A stretch of DNA of 64,000 bases, from positions 576,001 to 640,000 of the forward strand of contig CAVTJJ010000006.1 of NCBI GenBank assembly GCA_963735035.1, given 5' to 3'. This DNA comes from an uncultured candidate division Zixibacteria bacterium. GTDB lineage: Bacteria > Zixibacteria > MSB-5A5 > GN15 > FEB-12. Position numbers and translations under genes: made by a program. The notes beneath the pieces were generated by a model, which did not search any database, had not been told where the DNA came from, and worked only from the letters and a program-made list of their open reading frames with translations. Positions 792 through 29,703 of the stretch are shown here, in pieces (the stretch's first letter is position 1; each line of letters starts with the position of its first letter).

Positions 792-854
792 CGGGTGGCC
801 AGCCGCTTGCGGGTGGGGTTGATCAGGTAGGGCGGGTCCGCTTCGAACCCGCCA
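792..854. repeat. REP-like palindrome cluster: GGGTG-footed unit (792-823) and GTAG-footed unit (827-853)
   Basis: GTAGGGCGGGTCCGCTTCGAACCCGCC is identical at 9509-9535 and 11632-11658. The GGGTGG..GCTTGC..GGTGGG unit recurs at 1431-1462 (inverted) and 11673-11706. Confidence 0.85.
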
Positions 855-901
855 CGTGTCTATGAGGGCGGAATGATGCTCTATGTCCTGACAGGAGGTT
901 T

Positions 902-1372
902 ATGATGAAGAGACTATTCGCTTTGGCGCTGTGCGGAACATTATGTATGTCCTGTGGGTGGCTTGGGAACAAGACTGTAACCGACCGATCACTCCGGCTT
1001 CATGTTCTTCAAGACTCAGTAGTTGCGAAGCCCGGCGACACTATCACACTGACTATCAGGCTACAGAACACTGGCGACGCGACAGTCCCAGTCACTACTT
1101 CAGGTTGCGCAATGTCAATTTGGGAGGCCTATCCTTCTCATTTCGGTGTTTTGGGTGTGTGCGATTCCGGATCTCCAGTTCCCTTTACACAATTACCGCC
1201 ACAAGAAACGATTGATCTGCCAACCAGATTTGTGATTAGCGGCCTCAACAGACCGATGAGCTTTGGTGTCAGGTACTCGATGACATATTCGGACGGATCT
1301 CGAAAGGTGAAGTACGACAGTTGGTCAGACAACTCGATAGTGATTACGGGGGGGCGGGTTCTAAGTAGGTAG
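902..1372 (+). CDS. Hypothetical lipoprotein with Ig-like beta-sandwich character
   Basis: RBS AGGAGG upstream; lipobox-like LCMSC; 'PGDTITLTIRLQNTG' Ig-like motif; more AT-rich than its neighbours. Confidence 0.65.
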   Translation: MMKRLFALALCGTLCMSCGWLGNKTVTDRSLRLHVLQDSVVAKPGDTITLTIRLQNTGDATVPVTTSGCAMSIWEAYPSHFGVLGVCDSGSPVPFTQLPPQETIDLPTRFVISGLNRPMSFGVRYSMTYSDGSRKVKYDSWSDNSIVITGGRVLSR

Positions 1373-1398
1373 GAACCCCTGTCGTTTCGACATTCTAC

Positions 1399-1539
1399 CG
1401 GCAGGCGCGGAGGCCTGCCGATCAGGGATCATCTATCCCACCCGCAAGCGGGTGGCCCACCCAGACGCTCCCAGCGCAAGCGCTGGGGCACCCAGGGTAT
1501 GACTATTTGAATGGGCAGACCAGGAGGTCTGCCGCCCAC
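1399..1539. repeat. Mosaic of four REP-like palindromes (1399-1424, 1431-1462, 1470-1493, 1513-1539)
   Basis: 1399-1424 nearly matches 29600-29625; 1513-1539 is identical to 17706-17732; 1431-1462 is an inverted relative of 792-823. Confidence 0.85.
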
Positions 1540-1541
1540 AG

Positions 1542-2486
1542 TCATTTCTTCAACAGTGGATGCGAATTCGCGGCAACGCCTGATGCGGTCGCCACGCGGA
1601 TGTCGTGCGCAAGATTGATCGACGGGCGCGCGTCCTCAAGGCCAAACCCTTGCCCGGCCAAAGTGCGGCGATAGACTTCGGTGTGAAGATCGGTGAACCC
1701 GTCGGAGAACTCGACTTCCTGACCGTCGATAGTAATCGAGCGGTAAGTCGCCTGCTCGGCTTTCAGATTGTTCGGTAGCATGTCGCGATCTATCGACAAA
1801 AACCAGCGTACCCGGGCGCGCTCCAGTTCGAGAAAACCGGCGGTCGAGGTCGTATTCGCGAGATGGACTTCGTTCTTCTGCACCCCGCCGAACAACCAGA
1901 CGAGCAGATCGAAAAAGTGAATGCCGATATTTGTCGCCAGTCCGCCCGAACGTTCGAGCTGGCCTTTCCACGATACGAGATACCATTTGCCGCGCGAGGT
2001 TATATAAGTGAGCAGAACGTCGTGCTTGTCGGTCGGGCGCTCTTTCTGAATTTTCTCCCGAAGTGCGATCAGTGCGGGGTGAACCCGCAACTGCAGAACC
2101 GTGTTGATCTTCCGGCCGCTTTCTTCTTCGAGTTCGGCGAGGGCGTCGATATTCCACGGATTGAGCACGAGCGGTTTTTCGCAGATAGCGTCCGCCCCCA
2201 CCCGCAACGCAAACCGGCAATGGGCGTCGTGAAGGTAGTTCGGGGAACAGATCGATACATAATGTATCTTCCGGTCATCCCCGATGCGGCGCAGTTTGTC
2301 TATGTGGCGGTCGAACCGCTCAAATTCGGTGAAGAAGCTGACGTCGCTGAAAAAGCGGTCGAGAATCCCAACCGAATCGGCCGGATCGACCGCGGCCACC
2401 AGGTTGTGGCCGGTTTCTTTGATCGCTTTCAGATGACGGGGGGCGATGTAACCGCCGACCCCGGTAATGGCAAAATTCTTCGGCAT
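1542..2486 (-). CDS. wbpB: Gfo/Idh/MocA oxidoreductase, WbpB/WlbA-like UDP-GlcNAcA 3-dehydrogenase
   Basis: GVGGYIAPRH, ICSPNYLH, CEKP, NIGIHFFD and FTDLH motifs typical of WbpB. Confidence 0.8.
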   Translation of the reverse strand: MPKNFAITGVGGYIAPRHLKAIKETGHNLVAAVDPADSVGILDRFFSDVSFFTEFERFDRHIDKLRRIGDDRKIHYVSICSPNYLHDAHCRFALRVGADAICEKPLVLNPWNIDALAELEEESGRKINTVLQLRVHPALIALREKIQKERPTDKHDVLLTYITSRGKWYLVSWKGQLERSGGLATNIGIHFFDLLVWLFGGVQKNEVHLANTTSTAGFLELERARVRWFLSIDRDMLPNNLKAEQATYRSITIDGQEVEFSDGFTDLHTEVYRRTLAGQGFGLEDARPSINLAHDIRVATASGVAANSHPLLKK

Positions 2487-2575
2487 CCTGTTTTCGTTTC
2501 CTCTGGCAAATTCGGCAACCGCCGGGCCGCAATATAAGGGTCGGATGATCGGGGCAAAACCGATAATCCGATTTC

Positions 2576-4038
2576 TTATTCTACCCGGAGCGCCTCGATT
2601 GGATCAACTCTGGCAGCCCGGGCCGCCGGATAAGCCCCAGCCGCGACACTGACCGCGAGGCCGAATCCGAGCGCCAGCAGGACCAGCCACCAGGGGAGGG
2701 CGAAAAGCTCGATCTGGTCGAAACCCTCCCTGGCCATGTAATATTGGGCGATGGCCGATGAAAGCCGGCTTATGAGCCAGCCAAGGATCAGGCCCGCTAT
2801 CGATCCTATTATGCCGATCAGTGCGGATTCGAAGAGGTAGAGCGCCTTGATGTCCATTTCCGACGCCCCCAGCGACTTGAGGACACCGATTTCGCGGCGG
2901 CGTTCCATGATCGACATGACCATGACATTTACGATGCCGAGCGAAGCGGTCACCAGCGCGATCAGGCCGACCATGGCCAACGCCATGTCGAAATAGATGA
3001 AGAAGCGGTTGATTTCCTCGAACTGCTGGGCGTAGCTGAAAGAACGGTACCCGTGCGCTTCAATAGTATCGCTTATCGGCTTGAACGAGACGGTCGGGTC
3101 GAGATGCAAGCGTCACGCGAGGATACTGTTTCCGGCTGTCGCTGTTGTTGGTGATTAAGTTGCCGCCGCCGGAGATCGCCGCATATAGTTCGGTCGGATC
3201 GTTGGACAAACCGCCATCGGCGAATCGCTGGGATGTTGCCACCGGGACCAGAATCGGCTCCACGCGGCGATACCCCTCGCCGGCTTTCATTACGCCGACA
3301 ATGGTCAGCGTGTCAGCAACAGTCGCCGGATGGGTGAAGAAGCCTTCGGTGAATCGTCCGAGCGCGCGCCCCAGTTCATCACGCGCCAGCCGCTTGATAT
3401 ATTCGGTAGTGCGGAGGGAATCGATCCATCCCTTGACAAAAATCCGGTCAGCCACTTCGGGTGCGCCGCGAAGGAGAAACACCAGGCCGGAATCGAGACG
3501 GATTCTTTGTACTGAGACGACAATCGACTTGCCTATGACCGAATCGGCGGTCTTGCCCTTGAAGTGATCGAGAAACTCCGACGTCACCACCGCCTCGCGC
3601 GCTGAGTCCGAAGTGAACAGTCGTCCCGGCGTTCATCTGTGAAAACATCCGCGTTTGCGTGGCCACCGACGGCACCGACTGAGCTTTCAGTTTCAGGGCG
3701 GTATCGAGCGCGAGCGCGGTGACATCGTACGAGTCGAACGGATAGGCCAGGTTGACACCGGGCAGAGTCGAAAGCCAGGTGAGGACTGAATCGTTGAGCG
3801 GGGCGGCTTTGAGCGTGTCGGCGGATTCGCGGCCATCTTTGGGGTAGACGTACATGGTCGACAACAGGCCGAGCTGATTGTACTGCTCGGTGACATACTT
3901 CTGATTGCCGGCACCGAACGAAAGCATCGCCACAAACGCGCCGATCGCGATCATTACGCCGGAGATGGTCAGGAACGACCGGAGTTTCATCCGCCAGAGG
4001 TTGCCGAGCGGGATCGTGATCTTGTCGTGGAAAGTCAT
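2576..4038 (-). pseudogene. MacB/FtsX-type ABC permease split by two single-base insertions (about 3626 and 3110); pseudogene or assembly error
   Basis: The N-terminus (RSFLTISGVMIAI), the middle and the C-terminus (ERRREIGVLKSLGA, YPAARAARVDPIEALR) lie in three successive frames. Removing one base at each site restores one continuous ORF. Confidence 0.8.
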
Positions 4039-4724
4039 CGCGCAGCCCCTCCTGCTACTTGTCCGTACACCAGACGGACTGTGCGCTGGGCGTGCGAAGA
4101 CGCCAGGTCGGGATCGTGCGTAACCATGATGACCGTGATCCCCTGGCGGTTGAGATCGGTCAGTATTGCGGCGATCTGAGTGCAGTTGTCGCGGTCAAGG
4201 TTGCCGGTGGGTTCGTCGGCGAAAAGCATCTCAGGTTTCTTCACGAGCGCGCGGGCGATAGCCACCCGCTGCTGCTCGCCGCCGGATAGATCGGCGGGGC
4301 GGTGGTCCAGACGGTCACCGAGGCCCAACTGTTCCAGCGTTTCCGTTGCGCGGCGGACCCGCTCGATCCGGGGCGTCTGGTTAAAATAGAGGGCCAGTTC
4401 GACATTTTGCAGCGCGGTCCGATGAGCGATCAGGTTGAACGACTGGAAAATCATGCCGACCCGATGAGCCCGGTAGGATGCCAGTTCACGGCGCGAAAGC
4501 TCGCTCAAATTGCGGCTGCCGATTTCGATCCGGCCGGAGGTTGGAGTGTCCAGCCCCGCCAACATGGCCAAAAGGGTCGATTTGCCGGAACCGGACGAAC
4601 CCACGAGGGCCAGGAATTCGCCTTTGGCGATAGCCAGGTTCACCCGGTCGACCGCGCGTACCTCGTGCGGGCCGCGCCGGAAGTAGCGGCAGAGATCGGT
4701 GGTTTCTATCAGTGGTTTATCCAT
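4035..4724 (-). CDS. ABC transporter ATP-binding protein (LolD/MacB-like)
   Basis: Walker A GSSGSGKS, signature [18 protein letters not shown]. Confidence 0.95.
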
Positions 4725-4755
4725 ATGGTTGTCCGAGCCTCAAGTCGCGCAGGCC

Positions 4756-4884
4756 GGTTGCGTCAGGTCCTTCGCCGCCAAAGGCGGCGTGAGACCTGAC
4801 GCCGCTGTCACTAAGCCGGTCACTCGTGTCAGTTCACACGTTCCACCTGCCGCAGGCGGGCCGAACGCAGGAACTGACACAACC
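4756..4884. repeat. Inverted REP-like doublet with nested hairpins
   Basis: GGTTGCGTCAGGTCC..GACCTGACGC and GTGTCAGTTC..GGAACTGACACAACC are inverted relatives; internal hairpins CGCCGCC-AAA-GGCGGCG and CCTGCCGCAGG. Confidence 0.75.
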
Positions 4885-5041
4885 AGGCAAGCTTCGGGGT
4901 AGTGAACCGGAGAATATTTGTCGGCTTGGCGGGACCGGTTCAACCAAAACCTCAAGTCAACTGTACGAATCCGTTTGACCCTTGTTGCATCCGGATTTAT
5001 CATGCCCCCACGTATGCTAAGAGGAAACTGACGAGGAACTT

Positions 5042-5575: not shown

Positions 5576-5576
5576 T

Positions 5577-7636: not shown

Positions 7637-8611
7637 GTGGCACTGCAAGACGTTTATCAGAAGATCAAACCGTCAATCGTAGCATTCGTGTCAACGGTGA
7701 CTTCAGATGTAAGGCGTACTGCCGAAGGCGTGTTACCTCCCATTTTCGGAACCGGTTTCATAGTCGATGGTGAGGGTTTAGTACTGACAAATGACCATGT
7801 TGTTAATGCTATAGAGAAACTCCCTAGACCAAGTGGAATGGATGCGCTCGATGTCGTACGCGTAATGCTTATTTCTCAGCAAGGCGACGAACTACGAACT
7901 GTTATGATGAGAGTGGAGGGAGTTCTATCTGTCGGCACAAAGAAACCTCTGCGTGACGATTTCTTCTTCAAGGAATTGCCTGACCTTGGATTTGTTGCTG
8001 TGTCTTTACGCGGCTTACCGGCAGTAAGCGTGCATGTGAACAGAGATATCCTTGAAGTTGGGCGGGAAATCGCCACTGCTGGTTTTCCGATGGGGAACTG
8101 CGCCATGGAAAGGCAACAGACTCTAGTTCCTAGACAAATCGCGCCAATGCTTCAAAGAGGCATAATATCAGCGTTACAGCCATTTGACGTTCCTCACGCA
8201 ATGAGCTTCAGCATAAATGTGCTGCTTCAGAATGGTGCGAGTGGTTCGCCTGTATTTCTATCGGACACCGGTGAGATCATTGGAGTAGCGTACGAGCGTG
8301 TATTCGAACAGTGTGTCGGACAAGTAGTTGATACGAAAGGTCGGCTCGTTACCGCCTCCGATGGAGAACCGATAGCGGCGATTATGAATGCCCCGACAAA
8401 CTTTTCATATGCGGTACCCACACATTTCCTTGGATTGGGACAGTTGGAAAAGGTAAAGGAGCAGTTTGCACGCATAGTGAAGCCGGGCAGACTTACCATG
8501 GAAGAGTATCTCGCACAGGCAAAGAGCGTTAGGATAGGGGGAACGACAGCGGATTCAGGTCAGGGAGATCTGGTCCTGCCGCAGTACATTATAAATGATA
8601 TGGAGTTGTGA
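7637..8611 (+). CDS. Trypsin-like (S1) serine protease, no signal peptide
   Basis: GTGF, LTNDHV (His), PDLG (Asp), GASGSP (Ser); RBS AAGGAG before the GTG start. Confidence 0.8.
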   Translation: MALQDVYQKIKPSIVAFVSTVTSDVRRTAEGVLPPIFGTGFIVDGEGLVLTNDHVVNAIEKLPRPSGMDALDVVRVMLISQQGDELRTVMMRVEGVLSVGTKKPLRDDFFFKELPDLGFVAVSLRGLPAVSVHVNRDILEVGREIATAGFPMGNCAMERQQTLVPRQIAPMLQRGIISALQPFDVPHAMSFSINVLLQNGASGSPVFLSDTGEIIGVAYERVFEQCVGQVVDTKGRLVTASDGEPIAAIMNAPTNFSYAVPTHFLGLGQLEKVKEQFARIVKPGRLTMEEYLAQAKSVRIGGTTADSGQGDLVLPQYIINDMEL

Positions 8612-8765
8612 TCTGTGGATCCTTCGAATAGTATTGTGAGTCAGCTAAGGAGTGGTGATTTGTTTGTTAGTTGCATTCATGAAGACAGTATCTCGTGGGT
8701 GTGACAGGCACATGTCGAAGCATGAGGTTGTCGACCGACAAAGCTGCAAAATCCGGAAGTGATGA

Positions 8766-9431
8766 ATGAGCGTTCAACAGAAGCCATCAGTCAAGTGGTG
8801 TCGGAGTTGCGGGAGACTGCTTGACCAGTCGGTGAAACTGTGCTATCACTGTGGATCACCGACATCTCGACTAAGCGGCTTCGTTCACAGGCATAGAAGC
8901 TTCTTTGCAGCGCTTGGAGGTATCGCTGGATTGTGTGGCATAGTGCTCGTTATTCTCAACTTCCAAGCGACGCAAGAAGCTGTGGAAATCAGTCGCCAAA
9001 GATACATCGATGAATTTCAGCCGTTGGTGTCGGTGGAGTATCTTGGCGTAGAAACGGTCGGAGAGGCTTTTGTCCTGCGATTTGGATTGTTCAACAAAGG
9101 CAGGGCCGTCGCCTATGATCTGTCTGAAGCCGTCTGCGTTGTCGATAACTGTAAAGACACGCTCTATATTGACACAACGTTCACGGATAGGCTGTTTCCG
9201 TCAGAGCGTGATGCGAAGTCGCTACCGGTCAAGTTTGATATGAAGAGAGTGCTATGCGTGCCGGTAGTGCTAACTTGGCAGGTTCGTTATTGGTGGAATG
9301 GCGAGCCGCAAATCAAAGACTACTTGTGCGTTTGTGACATAACTTACGATGCAGATATGCGCAGACTCCTGGTGAATCAGCGCAGGGACAAAGTGACGGG
9401 GTACTTTGATTCGTTGTCTGGTGGTAAATGA
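8766..9431 (+). CDS. Hypothetical membrane protein with N-terminal zinc ribbon
   Basis: CRSC..CYHC followed by one hydrophobic helix. Confidence 0.6.
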   Translation: MSVQQKPSVKWCRSCGRLLDQSVKLCYHCGSPTSRLSGFVHRHRSFFAALGGIAGLCGIVLVILNFQATQEAVEISRQRYIDEFQPLVSVEYLGVETVGEAFVLRFGLFNKGRAVAYDLSEAVCVVDNCKDTLYIDTTFTDRLFPSERDAKSLPVKFDMKRVLCVPVVLTWQVRYWWNGEPQIKDYLCVCDITYDADMRRLLVNQRRDKVTGYFDSLSGGK

Positions 9432-9460
9432 AGGTTCGTACAGAAGAAACCGATTGAAGG

Positions 9461-9536
9461 TTGTCGAAACCGCAGGGGTTTCGACCTACGACAGGCTCAG
9501 CCTGACTTGTAGGGCGGGTCCGCTTCGAACCCGCCA
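9461..9536. repeat. REP-like mosaic: inverted GTAG unit (9461-9489), GTCA-family half unit and GTAG unit (9509-9535)
   Basis: GTCGAAACC..GGTTTCGACCTAC hairpin; 9489-9535 matches 11612-11658 at 46 of 47 nt. Confidence 0.85.
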
Positions 9537-9637
9537 ATAGGTGTCGAAACTACCCTATCAGACTACTTTCGAACTATGTGGTTCAAGTTCACGTACAGTC
9601 AGGCAGGACCGTTACTGAAATTTGAAAGGATTCTGTC

Positions 9638-11506
9638 ATGAAACAAAGACTAATAGTTCTCAGCACGCTGATTGCCATTGTCGCTCTGTGCAGCGTCGCC
9701 GTCGCACAGGGGAATCTGACCGACCCGTATGAGATTCTCGGTAAGAATCTCCAGGCCCAGGGCGGGCTCGATCGCCTCAAGGCCGAGAAGACTTCCTATA
9801 TGGAAGGCACTCTCGCGGTCGCCGGTCTGACCGGGACACTCAAGGCCTGGTCGAAATATCCTGATCTGCAGCGAACCGAAGTAGATCTCAAGGTCCTCAA
9901 GATGACACAGGGTGATAACGGCACGATAACCTGGGTGCTCGATTCCAACGGCAAGATTCAGAAGGTTACGAAGGAAGACGAAATCACCCTCAAGCGCCGC
10001 GAACTTAAGCGGCGTATGGCCGACAATGAACAGGCTGATCGCAATTCGAAAGTGTTCTCGGTGCAACTGCGAGGCCGCGACAAGGTCAACGATCAGGATT
10101 GCTACGCCGTCGTCATCACTAACAAACTTAACTCCGATACGCTCATCTATTTCATCAACTCGAAGACATTCCTTCTGGAAGCGTCGGATTCGAAACAGGG
10201 CACCGAGGGAACGTACAGTATGATGTCAGACTACCGTCAGGTTGACGGTCTGACGGTCCCGTTTCACACCAGCCAGAAGGAGCACTTGACCGGCCAGGTG
10301 CAGGAGATTACGATTACAAGCTACGGGTCCAATCCGACCGTCGATCCGGCGATGTTCGAGCCGCCGGAGGAGAAGGGGAAAGACTTCGCGTTTGTCGAGG
10401 GAGATCGTTCCGAGAACATTCCGTTCCAATTCATCGGCGCTCACTTATTCATTCCTGTCATAGTCGACTGCAAGGAACGTCTCTGGGTGCTCGATACCGG
10501 CGCCGGTATGACTGTTATCAGCAAGAAGTTCGCAGCTGAACTTGGTCTCAAGATAGAAGGCGATATGCAGGGCGCGGGAGTGGGCGGCAATGTAGCCGTG
10601 AGTTTCACCACCCTTCCGGCGTTCACTATCAAAGGGATCAACTTTGAAAAACAGCAAGTAGCGGTTATTGATATGGACCAGCTCAACCGGATGGTCGGTT
10701 TCGAGACTGCCGGTATTCTCGGTTTTGACTTCTTCTCCCGTTTTGTCACGAAGGTCGATTACGCCAAGGAACTGGTGTCATTCTACGATCCCGAGACATT
10801 CAAGTATTCCGGCGACGGTACCACCCTCGACCTGCATCTCAAGAACCAGACGTTCACAGTGTCGGCGTCGCTTGACGGCCGCTCGTCGGGCGTCTGGCTG
10901 TTCGATGTCGGCGCGACCGGAGTCAGTGTGGAAACTCCCTACGCGAAAAGCGAAGGGTACTACGATAGAAAAGGCGTGGTCGGGCTGGGAGCAGGCGCAG
11001 GGCAGACCTTCGAATCGAAAAACGTCAAGTGCGATAGCATGCAGCTCGCCGGATTCACGCTCTACCAGCCCCGTGTCAGTTTCATCCTCGGGGAGACTCA
11101 GGGCGGTGCGGTACCCGACCAACTGGGCGGGCTCGGCAATACTCTCTTCCGCAATTTCGTAATCTACTGCGACTACAAGAACGAGCGGGTCGTGCTGGAG
11201 AAGGGTACGAAGTTCAATCAATCCTGGCCGGAGGATCACTCAGGCTTGCAGCTGATGTGGGACACGGCTTGGGCCAATATCGAAGTGCAATATGTCCAGG
11301 CAGGGACGCCGGCGCAGAAATCAGGAATCAAGGTTGGTGATGCACTAAAATCGATCAACGGTGTGGACGTTGCCTATTTCGACGGCCTGAATGCCGTGCG
11401 CAAGCTGTTCACCGGAAAGATTGGCGAGAAGTTCGAGATTGTGGTGGACAGAGCCGGACAAGAGATGAAATTGAAATTGGCGCTGGCGGATTTGTTCGCG
11501 AAGTAG
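9638..11506 (+). CDS. Secreted aspartyl protease family protein (N-terminal LolA-like region, two retropepsin-like domains, C-terminal PDZ)
   Basis: Signal peptide; VLDTGA and LFDVGA motifs; GILGFDFF and GGLGNTLF; PDZ motif GTPAQKSGIKVGD. Confidence 0.8.
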   Translation: MKQRLIVLSTLIAIVALCSVAVAQGNLTDPYEILGKNLQAQGGLDRLKAEKTSYMEGTLAVAGLTGTLKAWSKYPDLQRTEVDLKVLKMTQGDNGTITWVLDSNGKIQKVTKEDEITLKRRELKRRMADNEQADRNSKVFSVQLRGRDKVNDQDCYAVVITNKLNSDTLIYFINSKTFLLEASDSKQGTEGTYSMMSDYRQVDGLTVPFHTSQKEHLTGQVQEITITSYGSNPTVDPAMFEPPEEKGKDFAFVEGDRSENIPFQFIGAHLFIPVIVDCKERLWVLDTGAGMTVISKKFAAELGLKIEGDMQGAGVGGNVAVSFTTLPAFTIKGINFEKQQVAVIDMDQLNRMVGFETAGILGFDFFSRFVTKVDYAKELVSFYDPETFKYSGDGTTLDLHLKNQTFTVSASLDGRSSGVWLFDVGATGVSVETPYAKSEGYYDRKGVVGLGAGAGQTFESKNVKCDSMQLAGFTLYQPRVSFILGETQGGAVPDQLGGLGNTLFRNFVIYCDYKNERVVLEKGTKFNQSWPEDHSGLQLMWDTAWANIEVQYVQAGTPAQKSGIKVGDALKSINGVDVAYFDGLNAVRKLFTGKIGEKFEIVVDRAGQEMKLKLALADLFAK

Positions 11507-11520: not shown

Positions 11521-11771
11521 GTAGGCCGGGACCCTTCGGGTTGCGACTTACAATAGCGTATAGTCACCCTGAGCTTGTCGAAGGGTGGCGCGCACTAAGT
11601 AAGTCATGCTTCGACAGGCTCAGCATGACTTGTAGGGCGGGTCCGCTTCGAACCCGCCGATGTGATGTCGCCGGGTGGCCCACCTGCTTGCAGGTGGGGG
11701 ATAGATGTTGTACGTCGCGACCTACCAGAGTCAGAATACAAACGCCGTCAGGCAGAGACGCCTGACGGCAC
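11521..11771. repeat. Large multi-family REP-like mosaic
   Basis: Degenerate GTAG unit at 11521; GTCACCCTGAGCTTGTCGAAG..CTTCGACAGGCTCAGCATGAC pair at 11563-11629; GTAG unit at 11632-11658; GGGTG unit at 11673-11706; GCCGTCAGG..CCTGACGGCAC at 11744-11771. Confidence 0.85.
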
Positions 11772-11800
11772 GATTGATATAACAAGGATTATCTTTACAC

Positions 11801-13203: not shown

Positions 13204-13232
13204 AAACCCGGCAGATGTGAGCATCTGCCGGG
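13204..13232. terminator. Hairpin between convergent genes, probable terminator
   Basis: CCCGGCAGATG-TGAG-CATCTGCCGGG preceded by an A-tract. Confidence 0.5.
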
Positions 13233-13301
13233 CACTATTCTTCGGAGGTCAGACCCGGCCGACTTTAGAATCTGCCGGGTTTGTATGTGATAACTTCCAA
13301 T

Positions 13302-16300
13302 CTACTTCAGCAGCAGCATCTTCTTCGTCAAGGTCGTTTCACCTGCCACCAGGCGATAGAGATAGACTCCCGTGGAAACCTGCTGTCCACTGTTGTCCGT
13401 ACCGTCCCACTCGACTCGATTGCGACCGGCGGCACAGTATCCGTTGACCAGCGTTCTTACTTCCTGGCCAAGGACATTGTAGATGCTGAGTGTGACCTGC
13501 CCGTCCGACGGCACATCATAGGGGATGGTCGTGGCGGGGTTGAACGGGTTCGGGAAGTTCTGCGCGAGATCGAAAGTCTCCGGAAGACCGCGACTATCCG
13601 ACGAAAGCCGAGTCAACTGAACTCTGGCGCCACTGCCGCTCCAGGCTAGATTGGGATAAGCGCGTTCGCCGTTTACCCTGATCTCCAACTGGTCACCTTC
13701 TTTAGGATAGTGCTTAGACACCGTCCCCGAAGCATCGTTGCCGTAAACAGGTGTAAGTCTGAGAATATTGCCGGAATATACCCCACGCCCGCACATGATC
13801 GAGCCGTCGGTGTAGAACTCGATCATCGAGCCGTCGGCGACCGGTTTGCCATCGACCGTGATATTACTTCCATACACGGACATCCAGTCGCGGGTCATCT
13901 CGGCGAGCGGGAGCTCAGGCGAGCCCGAACCGCCCGGCCACACGATGACACTGTCGGGGTTGGTATGGTCCGGATAAGTGAGCGTCATGAACGTCGGCAC
14001 CTTGGCCCAATACCCAAACGTAGGCCGCAACTCAGTGAGAGTATTGAGACCCCACATATGTGGCAGCCACACCTGGGCGCCCTGGTCGAATCCCATGGCT
14101 TCCTGAAGACTATCAATGATCGACGCGAACCCATTCTCAACCGGCATTGTGCGCTCCGGCCAATATGAGACGAGGTTCCAGCCCGGCTCAAGGCTGATCG
14201 ACTGATCGGTCTGAATCGGGTTACCGCACACCTGTAGGACAGCGTCGCAGTTCATCCGAATCCAGTAGCCGTGATGGTAGTCGACTCCGGTCAAGGTGTT
14301 GAATTCGTCACCGAGGGCGGGATCGAACATCAATCCGCCCTGTTCATACGAAAGCACGACGTCGACACACACAATTATTTCATCGAGGGCCAGACGGATC
14401 CTGCTTTCATCATACGCCACATTCCAACTGACCAGATTCCAGCCGGTATGCAAGGGGATGTCGAGGCAACGGCTCTGGCCGAATTCGCAGACTTCGAAGA
14501 TGTCGCCGTTCGCAGTCCAGTAGACAGGGGTGGTAGGTTGCACCGGCTGCCCGTCGATCATGAACTGGATCAGATCGCCCGGCACACATCCTTCGTCGAC
14601 CTCGGTATACGGATCATCCCGATAGATCGGCATCAAACCGAACGAACCTTCCCAGTATCTGATTGCCTGGCCGCACAGGACGCCCTGGGGATCGTAGGCC
14701 GTTATGACCGAATGCTGTGATGCGGCCACATCGTCGGGTCGGAGCTGGTTACAGAATACGATAATCCACTCGTTCGTGGGAATAGGTTCGCCGCCGCTGC
14801 CGCCGCCATAAGGCACTGCGCCCATATCATTGCGAGAGCCATCCGGATCGTTGAACATAGGATCCGGATCGCCGGTATTGATACATGGAGACCCCTGGCT
14901 CAAAGTCCACTCCTGGACCAATTGCTCGACGTTGAACAACGGATCAGCGCTGATAGCGCCGGGACCGGGATTAGGAATGTTGATGTAATCTCCGTGGGGA
15001 CCGCCGTCGAAATCGCCCTGCCCGAAGACATCGTTGTACCCCATAATGGGTGGCTCTTGTTCAGTCAGACTCTGTTGATGAATGCCATAGTTGGCGTTGA
15101 ACGCCACGATGTTGTTCCGAATGGTCGGTGGTGTAATTGAAAACATCGAAATACCACCATTGGTGCTGTTCACAATCGTATTGTTTTCAATTATCGCCGG
15201 TGCATACCCGAGATTGGCATGGTAGCGGGGATCCCCAGAGGGATCGAAGATCGTATCAAGCGGTCCAGCAAGGCAGATGGCCGCCCAGTTCCAGACATTC
15301 TGGCGCACACAGATGTTGTGTCTGATAGTCGGGGCGGAGTTGGAGCACATGACTGCAATCCAGCCCCCGGCTAGCGTGAACCCATCCAGCACGGCGTCGT
15401 GCGTTTCACCGTGATCGAAAGAGACCAGAGTCATCGTGCGATCATTGGTGATGGTCGTTTGAAGCGGTCCTTCGGTGCTGTGCACAGCTATATTCTTGCC
15501 CAGATAATTCAGTGATTCCTGATATGTTCCGGGGGAGACCAGCACCAGGTCACCGTTGTGAGAGGCATCGATGGCCAGTTGGATGGTCGGATATTCACTG
15601 GGCACATAGAGCGTGTCAGGTTCCACAATGCCTTCAAACGGCATCGCGCCCATGTCATTGCGGGATCCATCGGGATCGTTGTACATCGGGTCCGGATCGC
15701 CGGTATTAATACAGGGCGACCCAGGGCCCAACTTCCACGTAGCTGCGAAATCATTACTGAATAGAGGATCCTGGCTGATTGCTCCCGGTCCGGGGTCAGG
15801 GATGTTGATATAGTCACCGTGCGGACTTCCATCAAAGTCACCCTGGCCAAAGACGTCGTTGTATCCCATAATGGGCGGCTCTTGTTCGGTCAAACTCTGC
15901 TGATGAATACCGTAGTTGGCGTTGAAAGCCACGATATTGTTCCTTAGAGTCGGCGATGTGATGGAAAACATCGAAATTCCGCCGTTGGCACTGTTGACGA
16001 TAGTATTGTTTTCAATTATCGCCGGCGCATATCCGAGATTGGCATGGTAGCGGGGATCACCGGTCGGATCGGCTATCGTATCAAGCGGTCCAGCAAGACA
16101 AATTGCCGACCAGTTCCACACGTTCTGGCCAACGCAGACGTTACGCCTGATGGTTGGGGCGGAGTTGGAGCACAGGACCGCGATCCAGCCCCCACTCAGT
16201 GTAAACCCTTCAAGGACCGCGTCGTGACTTTCACCGTTTTCGAAAGTCACCAGATTCACCGTCCGCTGGTTGGTGATGACAGTCAGCGATGGCCCTTCGG

Positions 16301-17519
16301 CGCTGCGCACCGTGATATTCTTACCGTGGAAGTTAAGAGATTCATTGTAGACGCCGGGAGAGACCAGCACCATGTCGCCGTTACGCGCCGAGTCGATGGC
16401 GGTTTGGATGAACGGGTAGTCCTCGGGGACAAGAATTACCCGAGGTTCGATTGGCTCAGTCTCGAATTCGATGATCGAGCTTAACATCAGGTCTCGCGCC
16501 TGCGCGACCCATTGGCTCGGCTGAGGACAAAGTGGACAGTCTGTCCAAGGCGGACCTACCATCGCCAGAGCGGGATTTGCTTCATCGTACACTGGCTGGC
16601 CAATCGCCCAATTGGTGTACACCATGGGTTCTCGCGTCACCCAGGCCCAGGAGGAATCATCATACCCGCCCAACCAGTGGTTGCCTACCCGACCTATGGG
16701 GAAAATCGGGTCGAAGGAGACGGTGCGGAACGCGAAATCGTCCTCCTGCGAACTGGTGATCGTCGCCAAATGACCGGGAAGGCCATTCTTGGTGAACTGA
16801 GCAGCCGCGATGCGTGCCTGATCCCAGGTCAGCTTGGTCGGGAGGAATCCGTACCAATGGCCGTTGCCTCCCTCTGAGATGGGCCATTCCATCACGCAGA
16901 GGAGGGTATCACTCACCGGGTCGGTGTCGAATTCTATGACCGCTGTCAGGCAATATGCTCCTTCAGTACCGCACATCGTTGGGCGAGAGAACCATTGACC
17001 GGTAGCCGGACAGGTCAGGCATGGATCCCCCGCCGAAAATCCACGCATAGCCAGAGCCTGGATCGTATCCATCTGCAGGGGAAATCCATCAGCCCAGTTG
17101 GCGTAGACAAAGGGTTCGCCTGTGAGCCATTGCCACGATCCCCAGGAAGAGGCGCCAAGCCAGAATTCGTTCCCGAAAGCTTGTTCATACAAGTGACCAG
17201 TTGGAAAGACCCGGGAAAGAATGAATTGGTTCTCGCTTTCGGATGCGACCGTAGCGAGGTGACCAACCACGCCGTCCTTCTGGAAAGAGGCCGCTAATGT
17301 AACCGCCTCATCCCACGAGACAGTCGCGTCCGACAGTCCATACCAGTGGCCATTGCCACCCTCTGAGACTGGCCATTGAGTCAGTTCCCAAACAGTATCA
17401 ACTTGCGCCGTCGCACTCCCCAACATCACTGATAGACACAGGGCCGCCCCTAGAACTACACTAAGAACATGTCGATTCTTACTCTTGGTGGCAGGTCCTG
17501 CAGGTTTCCGGATTGCCAT
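13302..17519 (-). CDS. Large secreted protein: two C-type lectin-like domains, two right-handed beta-helix domains, and a FlgD-Ig/T9SS-type C-terminal domain
   Basis: Signal peptide; GNGHWY..W..A..GHLAT..WLG..W.W.T.EP..Y.NW twice; VP..YP.IQ.AID..SPCINTGDP..DMGA twice; LAQNFPNPFNP...KKMLLLK; RBS AGGAGG. Confidence 0.85.
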   Translation of the reverse strand: MAIRKPAGPATKSKNRHVLSVVLGAALCLSVMLGSATAQVDTVWELTQWPVSEGGNGHWYGLSDATVSWDEAVTLAASFQKDGVVGHLATVASESENQFILSRVFPTGHLYEQAFGNEFWLGASSWGSWQWLTGEPFVYANWADGFPLQMDTIQALAMRGFSAGDPCLTCPATGQWFSRPTMCGTEGAYCLTAVIEFDTDPVSDTLLCVMEWPISEGGNGHWYGFLPTKLTWDQARIAAAQFTKNGLPGHLATITSSQEDDFAFRTVSFDPIFPIGRVGNHWLGGYDDSSWAWVTREPMVYTNWAIGQPVYDEANPALAMVGPPWTDCPLCPQPSQWVAQARDLMLSSIIEFETEPIEPRVILVPEDYPFIQTAIDSARNGDMVLVSPGVYNESLNFHGKNITVRSAEGPSLTVITNQRTVNLVTFENGESHDAVLEGFTLSGGWIAVLCSNSAPTIRRNVCVGQNVWNWSAICLAGPLDTIADPTGDPRYHANLGYAPAIIENNTIVNSANGGISMFSITSPTLRNNIVAFNANYGIHQQSLTEQEPPIMGYNDVFGQGDFDGSPHGDYINIPDPGPGAISQDPLFSNDFAATWKLGPGSPCINTGDPDPMYNDPDGSRNDMGAMPFEGIVEPDTLYVPSEYPTIQLAIDASHNGDLVLVSPGTYQESLNYLGKNIAVHSTEGPLQTTITNDRTMTLVSFDHGETHDAVLDGFTLAGGWIAVMCSNSAPTIRHNICVRQNVWNWAAICLAGPLDTIFDPSGDPRYHANLGYAPAIIENNTIVNSTNGGISMFSITPPTIRNNIVAFNANYGIHQQSLTEQEPPIMGYNDVFGQGDFDGGPHGDYINIPNPGPGAISADPLFNVEQLVQEWTLSQGSPCINTGDPDPMFNDPDGSRNDMGAVPYGGGSGGEPIPTNEWIIVFCNQLRPDDVAASQHSVITAYDPQGVLCGQAIRYWEGSFGLMPIYRDDPYTEVDEGCVPGDLIQFMIDGQPVQPTTPVYWTANGDIFEVCEFGQSRCLDIPLHTGWNLVSWNVAYDESRIRLALDEIIVCVDVVLSYEQGGLMFDPALGDEFNTLTGVDYHHGYWIRMNCDAVLQVCGNPIQTDQSISLEPGWNLVSYWPERTMPVENGFASIIDSLQEAMGFDQGAQVWLPHMWGLNTLTELRPTFGYWAKVPTFMTLTYPDHTNPDSVIVWPGGSGSPELPLAEMTRDWMSVYGSNITVDGKPVADGSMIEFYTDGSIMCGRGVYSGNILRLTPVYGNDASGTVSKHYPKEGDQLEIRVNGERAYPNLAWSGSGARVQLTRLSSDSRGLPETFDLAQNFPNPFNPATTIPYDVPSDGQVTLSIYNVLGQEVRTLVNGYCAAGRNRVEWDGTDNSGQQVSTGVYLYRLVAGETTLTKKMLLLK

Positions 17520-17666: not shown

Positions 17667-17780
17667 GTAGGGGGCGGCACACGTCCTCGTGTGCCCCCTC
17701 TCAAGGGGCAGACCAGGAGGTCTGCCGCCCACGGAGAAAAGATCGCTACGGCCTCAAACAAGTCGGGGCATCGCGATGAC
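17667..17780. repeat. REP-like doublet (17667-17732) plus GTCA-family half unit (17740-17780)
   Basis: GTAGGGGGCGGCACAC..GTGTGCCCC followed by an inverted GTGG-footed unit identical to 1513-1539; 17740-17780 resembles 36537-36578. Confidence 0.8.
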
Positions 17781-19459: not shown

Positions 19460-19462
19460 AGC

Positions 19463-24795: not shown

Positions 24796-24999
24796 TTATG
24801 GTCTTCTATTTTCCAAGAACCTGGCACGCCTCGTTTTGCGCTTAGCGGCCGCCATCTTACGTTTGCGGGTCTCAGACGGCTTCTCGAAATGTTGATGCTT
24901 TTTGTAATCCGAGAGGATGCCAGATTTCTCGCAGAACTTGTTAAAACGACGAAGGGCTCTTTCGAAAGATTCATCGTCACGTACTCTAACTCCGGTCAA
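24796..24999 (-). CDS. rpsU: 30S ribosomal protein S21
   Basis: [20 protein letters not shown] start with SD AGGAGGTGA. Confidence 0.95.
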
Positions 25000-25156
25000 T
25001 TGCAGTCACCTCCTTTTCCGGTGTTTCAAGGTTTCGCGGTCGTTCCCCAAGAGGAAACCACCACCCAAGCCTTAAATATATCGGCCCTAATAACTTCTGT
25101 CAACAGCCGAATGACACTTTTCGGTTCGATTTTTCCCGGAGCCTGACTGGTAGGTG

Positions 25157-25225
25157 TAGTGGTGTCAGCCGTCTCTGGCTGACACCGGTAACAACACGCT
25201 GTCAGGCAGGGACACCTGACAGCAC
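25157..25225. repeat. Inverted REP-like doublet
   Basis: GTAGTGGTGTCAGCC-GTCTCT-GGCTGACACC and GCTGTCAGG-CAGGGACA-CCTGACAGCAC; the second resembles 11744-11771. Confidence 0.75.
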
Positions 25226-25266
25226 AAAGCAAGAGCCGTAATTGGCTTTTCTGAACTGGGCCGGAC

Positions 25267-25599
25267 TTACTTTTCCAGGTATTTCAAGCGGTCCGCCCCC
25301 CGATTGGACAGAAAATGGATATGAAAATGGGGGACTTCCTGCCCCAGACCGTTATTTATGCCCAACTGGTAGTGGTCCCTGATGCCCAGTTTCGTGGCCA
25401 CGACCTTGGCGGTATCAAAGCAGGCCTGAAGCATTTCTGGCGGTGTGTGCTGGAAATCGGGGTATTCAGGTTTTGAGATAATCAGCAGATGGACCGGGGC
25501 TTTGGGGCGATGGTCGGCGATTACTATCACCTGGTCGGACTCATAGAATATTTTGGCGGGCAGTTCGCGCTGGATTATGCGGGTGAAGATGGTGGACAT
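25267..25599 (-). CDS. HIT family nucleotide-binding protein
   Basis: TIFTRII.RELPA and the HFHIH histidine triad; start moved to the ATG at 25599. Confidence 0.9.
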   Translation of the reverse strand: MSTIFTRIIQRELPAKIFYESDQVIVIADHRPKAPVHLLIISKPEYPDFQHTPPEMLQACFDTAKVVATKLGIRDHYQLGINNGLGQEVPHFHIHFLSNRGADRLKYLEK

Positions 25600-25606
25600 G
25601 GGGGGG

Positions 25607-25635
25607 AAGATAGGCGGTGGGGCTCTGTCTGCCAA
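25607..25635 (-). promoter_or_regulatory. Putative sigma70 promoter giving a leaderless HIT mRNA
   Basis: TTGGCA-17nt-TATCTT-7nt-ATG on the minus strand, with no SD. Confidence 0.5.
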
Positions 25636-25681
25636 GCCGGGATTTGCCTTGTGTGGCGCGAACGTGCGGCTATATTTCAGC

Positions 25682-26743
25682 ATGATTCGGACACTTAGAC
25701 GGGGCGTGACGTCCGTGCTGCTTTTGGCAACCTCCGTTTTGGGAAGTGAAGCGGTCGGCGCTAAACCCGACCTGGAAGGAAGCTTCGATCCGCGTGTCCG
25801 CAACGACACCCTTTATGTAGTCTTTCGTGTTAGCACCTTCAACCTCGCTACCGATTCGATTAAAATCGAAAGCACGAAAGTGTTCCCTCCCACTGATTCC
25901 GGGACCGAGATCGGGACGCTGGTGGATACAAGTCGTTCGACCGTGGAAGTGTGGGGCACGCTTGAAGTACCCCTGAATCGAAAACCGGATTATAGCCGCT
26001 GGTCCGTTTCGGCCTTCGGTCGGGTCGGTGACTCAAATGTTGTTGTCTCCCGGTGGCAGAGGATGCGGCTGAACGATCTCGGTATCCGCTATCCCATGGC
26101 GTTCGGATTCGGTTATCTCGACGGTAACTTCGGCTCCGGACTGTCGCAGGAAGGGATAGTATGGTCATTCGAAACGGGCCTGTCCTATCACACTGACTAT
26201 TTCCGTTTCGCTTTCGAGACCACCCCCACCGGGAATTGGCGGAAGACCAACGAGACCTCGTTCTCGGAAGGAATCCAACTTAGAACCACGGTGTTCCCAT
26301 ACCGGCGCGAGTTTTGGAGGCCAGCGCTGACTCTTGGCGCATACCAGACCACCATTAAATTGGAGCGGGGCGACCGCAAATTCGACCGCCGGCTCTGGGG
26401 CCTGGAGTCTGGTCTGAGTGTCACCGGTCCGTTCGAGAGGTTCGGTTACGCCTACTGCACGTCTCACGGCGGTTATCACAGGTTTGATGCGTCGTTTTAT
26501 CTTGGACGGATGGGGCCTTCCTACCTGGGCACGCGTTACTCCATATTGCTGCAAGACAAGGTGGTGGTCTATCGGATTCAAGTGGACTGGGAAATCCTGA
26601 TGATCGGCGACGGTGACGCGGATACGCTGGATCGGATCAACCGTCGTCCGTGGTGGCACAAGGCGCTGGCGGGTTCTTCTTTTGTCACGTTTGTCCCGAT
26701 TCTGGCGGTAGGGGGGCTACTCTACCTATGCGGGGTGCACTGA
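25682..26743 (+). CDS. Hypothetical exported, beta-strand-rich protein with C-terminal hydrophobic helix
   Basis: Signal-like N-terminus from the ATG at 25682; amphipathic aromatic strands; hydrophobic tail. Confidence 0.55.
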   Translation: MIRTLRRGVTSVLLLATSVLGSEAVGAKPDLEGSFDPRVRNDTLYVVFRVSTFNLATDSIKIESTKVFPPTDSGTEIGTLVDTSRSTVEVWGTLEVPLNRKPDYSRWSVSAFGRVGDSNVVVSRWQRMRLNDLGIRYPMAFGFGYLDGNFGSGLSQEGIVWSFETGLSYHTDYFRFAFETTPTGNWRKTNETSFSEGIQLRTTVFPYRREFWRPALTLGAYQTTIKLERGDRKFDRRLWGLESGLSVTGPFERFGYAYCTSHGGYHRFDASFYLGRMGPSYLGTRYSILLQDKVVVYRIQVDWEILMIGDGDADTLDRINRRPWWHKALAGSSFVTFVPILAVGGLLYLCGVH

Positions 26744-26857
26744 GATTCCACTGGCCTCTTGCCAAGTCGAGGTCGATTCGTTAGATTTCAGATTGCGTCG
26801 GTGAGCGATGCTGATTTTGGAAATATGGATTGTTCTGGATAACGGAGGTATGCTGGC

Positions 26858-27610: not shown

Positions 27611-27618
27611 TCGGGAGA

Positions 27619-27673
27619 GTGGGGCAGACGAGGACCCCCGATCATGTCGGGGGCAGGCTCTGCCGTCCACTAC
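27619..27673. repeat. REP-like palindrome with nested CCCCCGATCATGTCGGGGG hairpin
   Basis: GTGGGGCAGA..TCTGCCGTCCACTAC arms; the internal module is shared with 36549-36566 and 29636-29657. Confidence 0.7.
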
Positions 27674-27684
27674 AAACAGACCTG

Positions 27685-27725
27685 AAAGGTCACTCTGAGT
27701 CACGCTCGGGGTGGCCTTTTTTTGT
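27685..27725 (+). terminator. Intrinsic terminator after yebC
   Basis: AGGTCACTCTGAG-TCACG-CTCGGGGTGGCCT followed by a T-tract. Confidence 0.75.
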
Positions 27726-27786
27726 TTCGTGGGGCTATACTCGAAGAATCACAAGTTCGCGGCCTGAAAGTGAAGAGGGCGTAGCC

Positions 27787-27933
27787 CCGTCATCCCGACG
27801 GAAGTCGGGACCCAGTTGTGTTGAATAGAGAACGAAAGCCGATGCTCAAGCCCCCCTTGCGAAGAGAGTCTTCGATCATTGCTACGATGATTCTGCAACC
27901 ATAACTGGGCACCGGTTTTCACCGGTGTGACGG
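27787..27933. repeat. CGTC-family REPIN-like inverted doublet
   Basis: The left arm CCGTCATCCCGACGGAAGTCGGGACCCAGTTGTG matches the reverse complement of the right arm, CCGTCACACCGGTGAAAACCGGTGCCCAGTTATG. Confidence 0.8.
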
Positions 27934-27963
27934 CCTGGCGGCCGTCTCTCGGGTTTCGCCCCC

Positions 27964-29529
27964 CTATTTCAGCAGCACCATCTTCCTTGATTGCACCGCA
28001 TCCCCCGCTGTCAGTTTGTACAGATAGATACCAGAAGCCACCGCGTGACCGATTCTGTCCTTTCCATCCCACTCCACACGATACGTTCCACCCGACAATT
28101 CACGGTTCACCAGAACCCGCATCTCATTGCCAATGATATTGTAAATCGCCAGTCGAGCCGGGCTCTTTTCCGGCAAGCCAAACTCAATCTGGGTGCTCAC
28201 ATTGAACGGATTCGGATAGTTCTGCTTCAATACAAAGTCGGTTGGAAGAACCGGATCATAGTCATAGTCCACATCCAGAGAGCCGGACCAGCCCGAGTAT
28301 ATGAACACCAATCCTCGATGTAAGTGATCTTCGGCGCCAAAGGCAAAGTCATCTATCCCATCCCCGTTGAAATCGCCTATCCCGGTAGCAGAGCGTCCCA
28401 CCTCATACTGTATATCGGGGATATCTGAATTGTGTATACGCACATCTGGTAGGCTGTCGGCATCCGGTCCGCCCAGGAAGATTTCAACCCAACCGGTGCC
28501 GGAAAATGGAAGCGGATTTCCCCTGACTAGATCATCATATCCATCGTTGTTCACGTCTCCGGCACAAGCAACAGCATCCGCCCTTCCAAGTATCGCCAGG
28601 TCTGGCACTGTATCAAAAGCAGGTCCCCCAAAATAGATGAAGGCAGTTGAGTCGTCGGATGGATGCGTTCCGACATAAAGATCCTCATAACCGTCTCCGT
28701 TGAAGTCGAGACACGTCATCCGGTCACCCCAGGAATCATAATTAAGCGAATATGCGCCCGGTCTGGTAATGATCATACTTGGAATCGTGTCGAAAGACCC
28801 TCCCCCGAAATAAACGTAAACCTGTCCGTTCTGGTTGTACTGGGGAGCAGGCCGAAAATTCACTGCAAGGTCAATCTTGCCGTCACCGTTGAAGTCCCCC
28901 GGAATCATCTGTTCAGCAAACACAAAGCTCGGAAGGCTAAGACTCGCCGGAGGAGCAATCCTTCGATCAGGCATCGAGTCCGGTTCCGGCTGCAATTCAA
29001 AGAACAGAAAGGACTGGTAGTCACTCGCAGCGTAGATCAATTCGTCCAGGCCATTTCCGTCGATGTCGTGTCCCCATACTCCTTCCCCCCGAGGTTGATA
29101 CGTGTCGCTGCCTAACCAAATACCGATGATTCCATCATTGGTCGGACCACCCCAATATACTGCTGCGCGCCACATGCCACCTACTCCCGTCCCCGTAGAG
29201 AAGTCACGGAAGCCATCACCATTCAAGTCGCCAAGGTTAGACAGGTAGAAATACACCGAATCACCGATGACCAAATCGGGCACTGTATCGAGCGTCGGAC
29301 CGCCGTAGAAGAGCTTGGCGCGGTACACAGGAGGCTGAGGTATAGTCCCCCAATCATAAACGAGAATATCGTCGTACCCGTCACCATTCTGGTCCCCCAG
29401 AGGGATTATCTCCCAACCCAAAAGCGTGTTTGGTTCACCCCGTATGATGCCAATGAGGTTCGGCAACTGGGCGCTCGCTGCACTGGCACAGAGAAGAAAA
29501 CAGAGTGTGAGTAACGGTCGGAGTTTCAT
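27964..29529 (-). CDS. Secreted FG-GAP/VCBS-repeat protein with FlgD-Ig/T9SS-type C-terminal domain
   Basis: Signal peptide MKLRPLL..; repeated GD(Q/L/F/V)NGDG.DD motifs; LKQNYPNPFN..SRKMVLLK. Confidence 0.85.
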   Translation of the reverse strand: MKLRPLLTLCFLLCASAASAQLPNLIGIIRGEPNTLLGWEIIPLGDQNGDGYDDILVYDWGTIPQPPVYRAKLFYGGPTLDTVPDLVIGDSVYFYLSNLGDLNGDGFRDFSTGTGVGGMWRAAVYWGGPTNDGIIGIWLGSDTYQPRGEGVWGHDIDGNGLDELIYAASDYQSFLFFELQPEPDSMPDRRIAPPASLSLPSFVFAEQMIPGDFNGDGKIDLAVNFRPAPQYNQNGQVYVYFGGGSFDTIPSMIITRPGAYSLNYDSWGDRMTCLDFNGDGYEDLYVGTHPSDDSTAFIYFGGPAFDTVPDLAILGRADAVACAGDVNNDGYDDLVRGNPLPFSGTGWVEIFLGGPDADSLPDVRIHNSDIPDIQYEVGRSATGIGDFNGDGIDDFAFGAEDHLHRGLVFIYSGWSGSLDVDYDYDPVLPTDFVLKQNYPNPFNVSTQIEFGLPEKSPARLAIYNIIGNEMRVLVNRELSGGTYRVEWDGKDRIGHAVASGIYLYKLTAGDAVQSRKMVLLK

Positions 29530-29599
29530 TTCATAACCCCCGATACAATATAGCATTGACTGCGCAATTGTCCATTAGAAAAGCTGGGGGATATCCTTG

Positions 29600-29703
29600 C
29601 GGCAGGCACAGAGGCCTGCCGATCACAAATGCTGCCGAATTGAGTCGGGGGCAGGCTCTCCCGCCCACAAAACAATGTCAGGCGTCGAGTCCGCCTGACC
29701 TAC
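29600..29703. repeat. REP-like mosaic (29600-29625, 29636-29668, 29677-29703)
   Basis: The first unit nearly matches 1399-1424; the second matches the right part of 27619-27673; the third is a GTAG-footed GTCAGGCG..CGCCTGAC hairpin on the minus strand. Confidence 0.8.

Follow-up and report, generated by a model that had tools for sequence, protein, structure and literature searches.

Repetitive extragenic palindromic (REP) elements in bacterial genomes have been described in mixed-family clusters and as hybrid dimers (PMC3116915, PMC3733652), with a preference for convergent spacers and with properties of insertion and recombination hot spots (PMC3116915, PMC3733652, PMC1525189). Tandem arrays of REPINs (REP doublets that form hairpins), including their flanking sequence, are also known (PMC3116915). 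A second type of system is represented by the Ssn GIY-YIG single-strand nucleases, for which a layout with flanking NTS/SRM hairpins has been published and whose hairpins are reported to "surround key genes" in Neisseria (PMC11893778). Here we describe hairpin repeats in a 64,000-nucleotide (nt) stretch of DNA, hereafter the window, from an uncultured candidate division Zixibacteria bacterium (positions 576001-640000 of contig C6 in the genome that we call G000). A preliminary description of the window listed mosaics of several palindrome families at the borders of non-core genes and proposed that they may capture and shuffle genes. Our analysis points instead to a simpler explanation: the mosaics are very probably local heaps of two known, non-autonomous kinds of hairpin repeat that fill the room between genes.

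The G000 genome is 3.61 Mb in six contigs, with 55% GC, and its genes were called by our own heuristic based on open reading frames (ORFs) and codon bias. High-copy repeats were defined de novo as canonical 14-mers with at least eight exact copies, a definition that misses low-copy variants. This gave 1,835 such 14-mers in 2,434 islands and 134 k-mer families, several of which are halves of one longer element; setting aside two long-repeat families left 2,404 short-repeat islands. They are nearly confined to spacers, with 1,923 islands (80%) intergenic, though 87.5% of the genome is coding and 12.5% non-coding. They also favour the 3′ ends of genes, reaching a density of 7.0 islands per kb in convergent spacers compared with 3.8 in tandem and 3.1 in divergent ones, and a spacer is more likely to be occupied as it lengthens; at 200-300 nt, 63% of convergent, 39% of tandem and 24% of divergent spacers contain repeats. 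Different families occur together in these permissive spacers. Since 361 of the 512 repeat-bearing spacers contain at least two families, mixing is the norm in G000, and the premise that such arrays usually consist of one family fails here, as it does for the mixed clusters already published (PMC3116915, PMC3733652).

The elements have features by which REPs are recognized, being short, GC-rich, imperfect palindromes that are high-copy, extragenic and able to fold into hairpins. A GTAG or GTGG foot can be read directly on the families GTAGGGCGGG, GTAGGTCGAAAC, GTAGGTCAGGC and GTGGGCGGCAG, and inverted doublets are seen at 17667-17736 of the window and in the CGGCAGG family. The most frequent adjacencies between families are either fixed composites (47 observed against 3.4 expected) or near random (28 against 20), and the recurrence of composites in a fixed order, such as the adjacency seen 47 times and a block of ~250 nt with five families found in three spacers, is typical of bacterial interspersed mosaic elements (BIMEs). 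When 13 mosaic segments from the window were folded as single-stranded DNA and compared with shuffled sequences, 12 folded better than the shuffles (z -2.4 to -7.3), the exception being segment 792-856 (z -1.1). Six motifs from the window have 1-20 exact copies and 12-87 near copies (up to four mismatches) in the 3.61-Mb genome, and hence are not products of chance. The REP-like nature of the window elements, as first described, is supported.

It had been suggested that the responsible enzyme is encoded elsewhere in the genome, and this was borne out by seven genes for REP-associated tyrosine transposases (RAYTs), each flanked by its own hairpin family. These seven loci score 93-134 bits against the NCBIfam model NF047646 (cut-off 80), and in the six RAYTs that were aligned the HUH motif (H-x-H) and the catalytic tyrosine (Y-x-H-x-N-P) are invariant. 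One repeat family surrounds each RAYT locus. The window contains four of the RAYT-flanking families: one is present at both 1399-1424 and 29600-29627, and the others at 1469-1492, 9463-9489 and 13204-13237. The family at 4756-4771 is a further case. RAYT matches were found in all 21 genomes searched, G000 included, with 1-13 per genome, and the nearest relatives outside this set are labelled as Zixibacteria and Ignavibacteria metagenome-assembled genomes. The two most abundant RAYT-cognate families begin with GTGCCCGG and TGATCGG, and not with GTAG or GTGG.

A search for GIY-YIG and DUF559 genes, also proposed in the preliminary description, succeeded for the first and found no DUF559 gene. 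Five small GIY-YIG genes, in addition to UvrC, exceed the PF01541 cut-off in G000. They stand alone at C4:993345, C5:31487, C6:20161, C3:441868 and C3:918016 (contig:position), with open frames of 92-147 amino acids (aa), or 80-130 aa from the first start codon; the copy at C3:918016 looks truncated. All five have high-copy hairpin families within 400 nt, each gene a different family, with feet of the CGTCAT/TGTCAT type. Their proteins gave no NCBIfam model over its cut-off and no relative in the PDB by sequence. Members of these families are present in the window: the composite at 36456-36579 belongs to the family bracketing the GIY-YIG gene at C4:993345, and the gene at C3:918016 has flanks that correspond to the hairpin ends at 27786-27819 and 27912-27945. 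In the window these two ends lie ~85 nt apart with no gene between them, so that the pair at 27786-27945 resembles a gene-less derivative of the C3:918016 locus.

These observations suggest how the mosaics may arise. One kind of repeat would consist of REP/REPIN elements whose cognate HUH tyrosine transposases are the RAYTs at the seven other loci, and the other of CGTCAT/TGTCAT-footed hairpins of an Ssn-related type, which bracket the five small GIY-YIG genes. Both may be copied via single-stranded DNA by the RAYT and GIY-YIG nucleases, and new copies, or whole mosaic blocks, would tend to insert close by, with their orientation preserved. Genes specific to a strain are usually monocistronic with long flanking spacers and therefore end up bordered by mosaics, which need not have brought them in.

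The concentration of repeats at gene ends could also have a different cause, in which the host retains hairpins mainly to terminate transcription or to stabilize upstream mRNA. Roles of REPs in termination and mRNA decay have been published (PMC3733652; 10.64898/2026.03.23.713779), density in G000 peaks in convergent spacers (7.0 compared with 3.1 per kb in divergent ones), all seven mosaics listed in the preliminary description adjoin at least one gene 3′ end, and two families are biased in orientation relative to flanking genes (70:32 and 34:13). We nevertheless regard selection for such functions as an unlikely main explanation. Nine of the 11 motifs tested have no orientation bias, and repeats also occupy divergent spacers that contain only promoters, for example at 4756-4884. 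Furthermore, occupancy was compared with G002, a genome of the same genus with ~74% protein identity to G000, of which 1.79 Mb (56%) was used with genes called by the same heuristic, giving 1,208 reciprocal best hits and 1,050 collinear intervals; the statistics rest on this one congener, and kin genomes are not independent. Among 103 orthologous occupied spacers, only 28 are occupied in both genomes, with 35 occupied in G000 only and 40 in G002 only. Spacer occupancy thus turns over quickly between species. The nuclease genes flanked by their own hairpin families point to mobility, which also argues against this alternative.

The proposal that repeats are enriched beside accessory genes was evaluated across the genome. 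Repeats are present in 56 of 215 spacers beside G000-specific genes and in 63 of 572 conserved adjacencies (odds ratio 2.85, p = 6e-7). However, spacers beside G000-specific genes are longer (median 149 compared with 57.5 nt) and more often convergent, and adjustment for the logarithm of total spacer length and for orientation reduced the odds ratio to 1.27 (0.78-2.07, p = 0.33). Two versions of a test based on empty sites gave odds ratios of 1.46 and 1.37, both non-significant. The crude enrichment is not significant once length and orientation are controlled (1.27-1.53 across models), and the case illustrates that spacer length and gene orientation can together give a misleading appearance of association between repeats and accessory genes. 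To a large extent, this outcome agrees with what had been named in advance as contrary to gene capture, although a modest true effect may exist.

An unexpected feature of the genome concerns neighbouring spacers. Occupied spacers 1-3 genes apart have a direct repeat scoring 60 bits or more in common in 31 of 305 cases, compared with 1.51% of all pairs (binomial p = 1.6e-16), and one of at least 80 bits in 21 of 305 compared with 0.31%. Inverted matches are at background (5 of 305 against 1.43%), and the direct-repeat excess decays over ~10 kb. In 23 of the 31 pairs, neither copy has a better match anywhere in the genome than its partner, and 13 occur solely as that pair; both copies are wholly intergenic in 25 pairs, and 30 enclose a credible gene, on either strand and of varied function. 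In one example, three successive spacers each carry the ~250-nt block, with its five families in the same order. Two of the five GIY-YIG genes are among the genes bracketed in this way, as is the window gene at 9638-11506. The bracketed single genes are poorly conserved: a reciprocal best hit in the portion of G002 that was compared exists for only three of 26. Among genes with repeats on both sides but no such pair the count is 47 of 148 (p = 0.036), among those with a repeat-bearing spacer on a single side 231 of 611, and among genes lacking repeats 907 of 2,141 (p = 0.001 for the bracketed genes against this last class).

Such brackets would be expected of repeat-bounded cassettes, in which direct mosaic blocks supply portable homology or form the two ends on which a single-strand nuclease acts, as in IS200/IS605, and single genes are inserted, excised or swapped. 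The excess of direct over inverted repeats, its decay with distance, the nature of the pairs and the poor conservation of the enclosed genes are all compatible with this mechanism, and within the window the gene at 9638-11506 fits it and two sites hold different cargo in G002. If it were true, with blocks serving as recombination arms or as RAYT/GIY-YIG ends, REP-type repeats would have given rise to a dispersed, integrase-free form of cassette exchange. We consider it quite improbable. Direct tandem arrays of such blocks also occur inside single spacers (54 of 512, with no inverted ones); as these arrays are equally frequent, the simplest reading of both is one local process of duplication that preserves orientation. 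None of the bracketed genes turned up at a second locus. In G002 one of 63 neighbouring pairs qualified, so the excess did not recur there, although the pairs are too few to decide, and in collinear context the counts are small, with four genes absent and three present. Precise loop-out was rejected as a source of the empty sites, since the two G002 sites that were read hold other, unrelated repeats and not the single repeat copy that would be left as a scar. A specific form of the proposal, in which whole multi-family blocks are the copied unit and direct sister pairs mark single genes being gained or lost, is likewise doubtful. Two other sources of the direct-repeat excess were also discarded: orientation bias of the REPs is too weak, with two of 11 motifs biased in a test that used short motifs with one mismatch and in which chance hits inside genes occur, and replichore bias is absent, direct and inverted matches being about equal beyond 20 kb.

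Several observations weigh against the explanation that we prefer, namely that mosaics are heaps of two known kinds of repeat. Sister direct repeats bracket single genes at 7-22 times background, these genes are rarely conserved in G002, and passive piling-up alone does not predict such brackets. The adjusted odds ratios are all above 1, and with repeat-free length as the covariate the value is borderline (1.53, 0.98-2.41, p = 0.062), so a real but modest association of repeats with accessory genes may exist. Furthermore, the 134 k-mer families far outnumber the 12 nuclease genes, and for many abundant families neither a RAYT nor a GIY-YIG gene lies adjacent; these include the three-copy GTAG-footed GTAGGGCGGG unit and the GGGCAGACC unit, which have no RAYT within 700 nt. 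The explanation is also drawn from sequence data. With regard to the families that appear to be orphans, a three-family unit at C4:1029624-1029972 is present in ~2.5 tandem copies with a period of ~124 nt and includes the GTAGGGCGGG unit, so this family travels within one composite together with a RAYT-cognate family. The point that remains is the orientation-specific duplication of mosaics across single, poorly conserved genes; if general, it would bear on a long-standing question, namely whether gene content is shaped by REP-type repeats or whether these simply fill free space.

In the window itself, all seven mosaics listed in the preliminary description are present, at 792-854, 1399-1539, 9461-9536, 11521-11771, 17667-17780, 27619-27945 and 29600-29705. 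The copy counts given for them also stand: three identical copies of the 27-nt GTAGGGCGGG unit, two identical copies of the GGGCAGACC unit, two of the CGGCAGGC unit and four of GGGTGG..GCTTGC... The palindromes themselves are confirmed at the sequence level, and the observation as a whole only partly, as the list is incomplete: a mosaic at 4756-4884, a REP at 13204-13237, a composite at 36456-36579 and a hairpin doublet at 25152-25227 had been overlooked. No Rfam family was matched in positions 1-40,000 and no tRNA was found in the 24-31 kb region.

The first mosaic (792-854) combines a GGGTGG..GCTTGC.. hairpin at 803-817 with a GTAG-footed REP at 827-854, whose family forms 49 islands genome-wide. 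Four hairpins make up the second (1399-1540, z -3.9): those at 1399-1424 and 1469-1492 are cognate with the RAYTs at C3:433872 and C3:165068, respectively, and the set is completed by a hairpin of the GGGTGG type (1435-1451) and a minus-strand REP with a GTGG foot (1513-1540). The mosaic at 4756-4884 occupies a divergent spacer with two long, nested hairpins (z -6.4), the first of which (4756-4771) is of the family flanking the RAYT at C4:7938. At 9461-9537, a minus-strand GTAG REP (9463-9489), cognate with the RAYT at C6:22346, is joined to a 53-nt composite, which is the direct-repeat partner of 11609-11661, with 94% identity, in the five-unit mosaic at 11521-11772. The single REP at 13204-13237 lies in the convergent spacer after prpD (z -7.3) and belongs to the most abundant family, cognate with the RAYTs at C3:865293 and C4:1466611. 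A REPIN-like doublet at 17667-17736 (z -5.4) pairs two related REPs that are inverted relative to each other, one with a GTAG foot on the plus strand and one with a GTGG foot on the minus strand, and a module of ~110 nt at this locus recurs elsewhere in the genome with 78-87% identity. Further along, the mosaic at 27619-27945 contains a nested REP (27620-27665) ahead of the two hairpin ends at 27786-27819 and 27912-27945, the one at 29600-29705 has three hairpins from three families (z -3.2), and the composite hairpin of ~125 nt at 36456-36579 is upstream of argS (z -4.9). The doublet at 25152-25227, between conserved genes, is not a tRNA and is low-copy in G000; in the relatives G001 and G010 it is multi-copy, and three of the matches in G010 lie less than 1 kb from a RAYT match.

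The absence of mosaics from the block at 38.5-64 kb, which had been contrasted with the accessory regions, is real and uninformative: by our gene calls, just one spacer in this block reaches 100 nt (149 nt in total), compared with 16 in the first 38.5 kb, nine of them with repeats. Conserved genes, including prpD, recN and argS, are bordered by repeats as well.

The claim that the mosaics border non-core genes holds for three of the four genes named. Those at 902, 9638 and 27964 are missing at the corresponding site in G002, and the gene at 13302 is syntenic. The ORF at 902-1372 (plus strand; 156 aa, lipoprotein-like N-terminus, no Pfam family) escapes our gene caller, has 50% GC and a codon score under that of every gene of at least 150 aa; its counterpart site in G002 is one continuous repeat mosaic from which the ORF is missing. 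The gene at 9638-11506 is part of a three-gene insert on the plus strand (7637-11506) that encodes a trypsin-like peptidase, a zinc-ribbon protein and an Asp-protease/PDZ protein, and that is absent in G001, G002, G004, G010 and G011, where aconitase adjoins prpD. Together with 902-1372, the ORFs at 7637-8611 and 8766-9431 are 49-50% GC and rank in the lowest 3% of genes by codon score. The left border of the insert has no repeat, and full-length orthologues of the 622-aa gene at 9638-11506 occur in only five of 20 relatives, in neither congener. Those in G007, G004 and G015 adjoin 0-2 hairpins and not mosaics, as determined with our own hairpin scan, which replaced a repeat finder that recovered only two window REPs in a control. 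The position of these orthologues speaks against the cassette mechanism. In G002, the gap between aconitase and prpD (contig C18, ~3400-4220) has a different small ORF between direct copies of one two-hairpin composite, and also contains the segment found at 11563-11638 of the window.

At 27964-29556 (minus strand), an FG-GAP protein with a type IX secretion system (T9SS) sorting tail was not found at the site in G002, where an ORF for a small exported protein and a DinB-like ORF occupy the gap. Empty sites, or sites with alternative cargo, do exist in relatives; those in G002 consist of repeat mosaics in their turn, and two carry different cargo. The strain-specific gene at 25553-26743 is also missing at the site in G002 and has no high-copy repeat at either border. 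Overall, the earlier interpretation is partly supported: its REP-like elements and its enzymes hold, and the capture or shuffling of genes is unsupported as stated.

Other features of the window were noted alongside. The 1405-aa gene at 13302-17519, which has beta-helix and T9SS-tail features and is syntenic in both same-genus genomes, contains an internal tandem duplication (14802-16066; period ~825 nt, 81-82% identity). A MacB/FtsX-type permease at 2576-4038 (minus strand) is split into three overlapping ORFs in G000 and is one gene in G002 (the interval has two extra ORFs in G000 and none in G002), which looks like the result of frameshifts, a pseudogene or an assembly error. It belongs to an ABC-transporter block (2576-4724) that is present in G002; in G001 and G004 a GFO-family oxidoreductase adjoins the gene at 5042 directly. 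A GCC/GCG-rich simple repeat at 29806-29879 encodes the glycine-rich tail of an RRM-domain protein, and a second RRM gene, at C5:88571, is among the repeat-bracketed genes.

In comparison with known systems, the bracketed genes of G000 recall integron attC arrays, which likewise have imperfect palindromes between single genes, often with unknown function. In G000, however, they are dispersed over ~27 loci on four contigs and on either strand, and no more than three successive spacers share a block; the integrase IntI was not searched for. Insertion sequences of the IS200/IS605 group are peel-and-paste elements with an HUH Y1 enzyme and with left and right subterminal hairpins on the same strand, an arrangement that resembles G000 genes lying between direct hairpin blocks. 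The G000 genes differ in being ordinary cargo without a transposase.

With Ssn and NTS/SRM, and with the dRS3/NIME arrays of Neisseria, G000 has in common small single-domain GIY-YIG genes, dispersed hairpins on both sides of them, a foot of CGTCAT type and hairpin clusters around genes (PMC11893778). The G000 family TGTCATTCCTGCG..GCAGGAA resembles the published NTS consensus as judged by eye (PMC11893778). Literature searches linking GIY-YIG genes to REP or palindromic repeats gave no relevant hits. The comparison rests on layout, and G000 differs in having five GIY-YIG paralogues with five hairpin families that share spacers with RAYT-type REPs. The REP/REPIN-RAYT systems and BIMEs, as in the REPtron of E. 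coli, the REPINs of P. fluorescens SBW25 and the multiple classes of S. maltophilia, have the same GC-rich extragenic palindromes, in hundreds of copies and at gene 3′ ends. Several G000 families have their GTAG/GTGG feet, the RAYTs have HUH motifs with a tyrosine and are flanked by their own family, and tandem arrays with flanking sequence and clusters of unrelated families are common to both (PMC3116915, PMC3733652). G000 has many more families (134 k-mer components), with seven RAYTs in 3.6 Mb and many abundant families without one next to them, and the phyla to which the available text of PMC3733652 assigns GTAG repeats do not include Zixibacteria. The G000 mosaics belong to these known kinds, the REP/RAYT and Ssn-like hairpin systems, and what appeared to be a system of cassettes is better described as two known selfish or domesticated hairpin-repeat systems that exist side by side in an uncultivated lineage of the FCB group.

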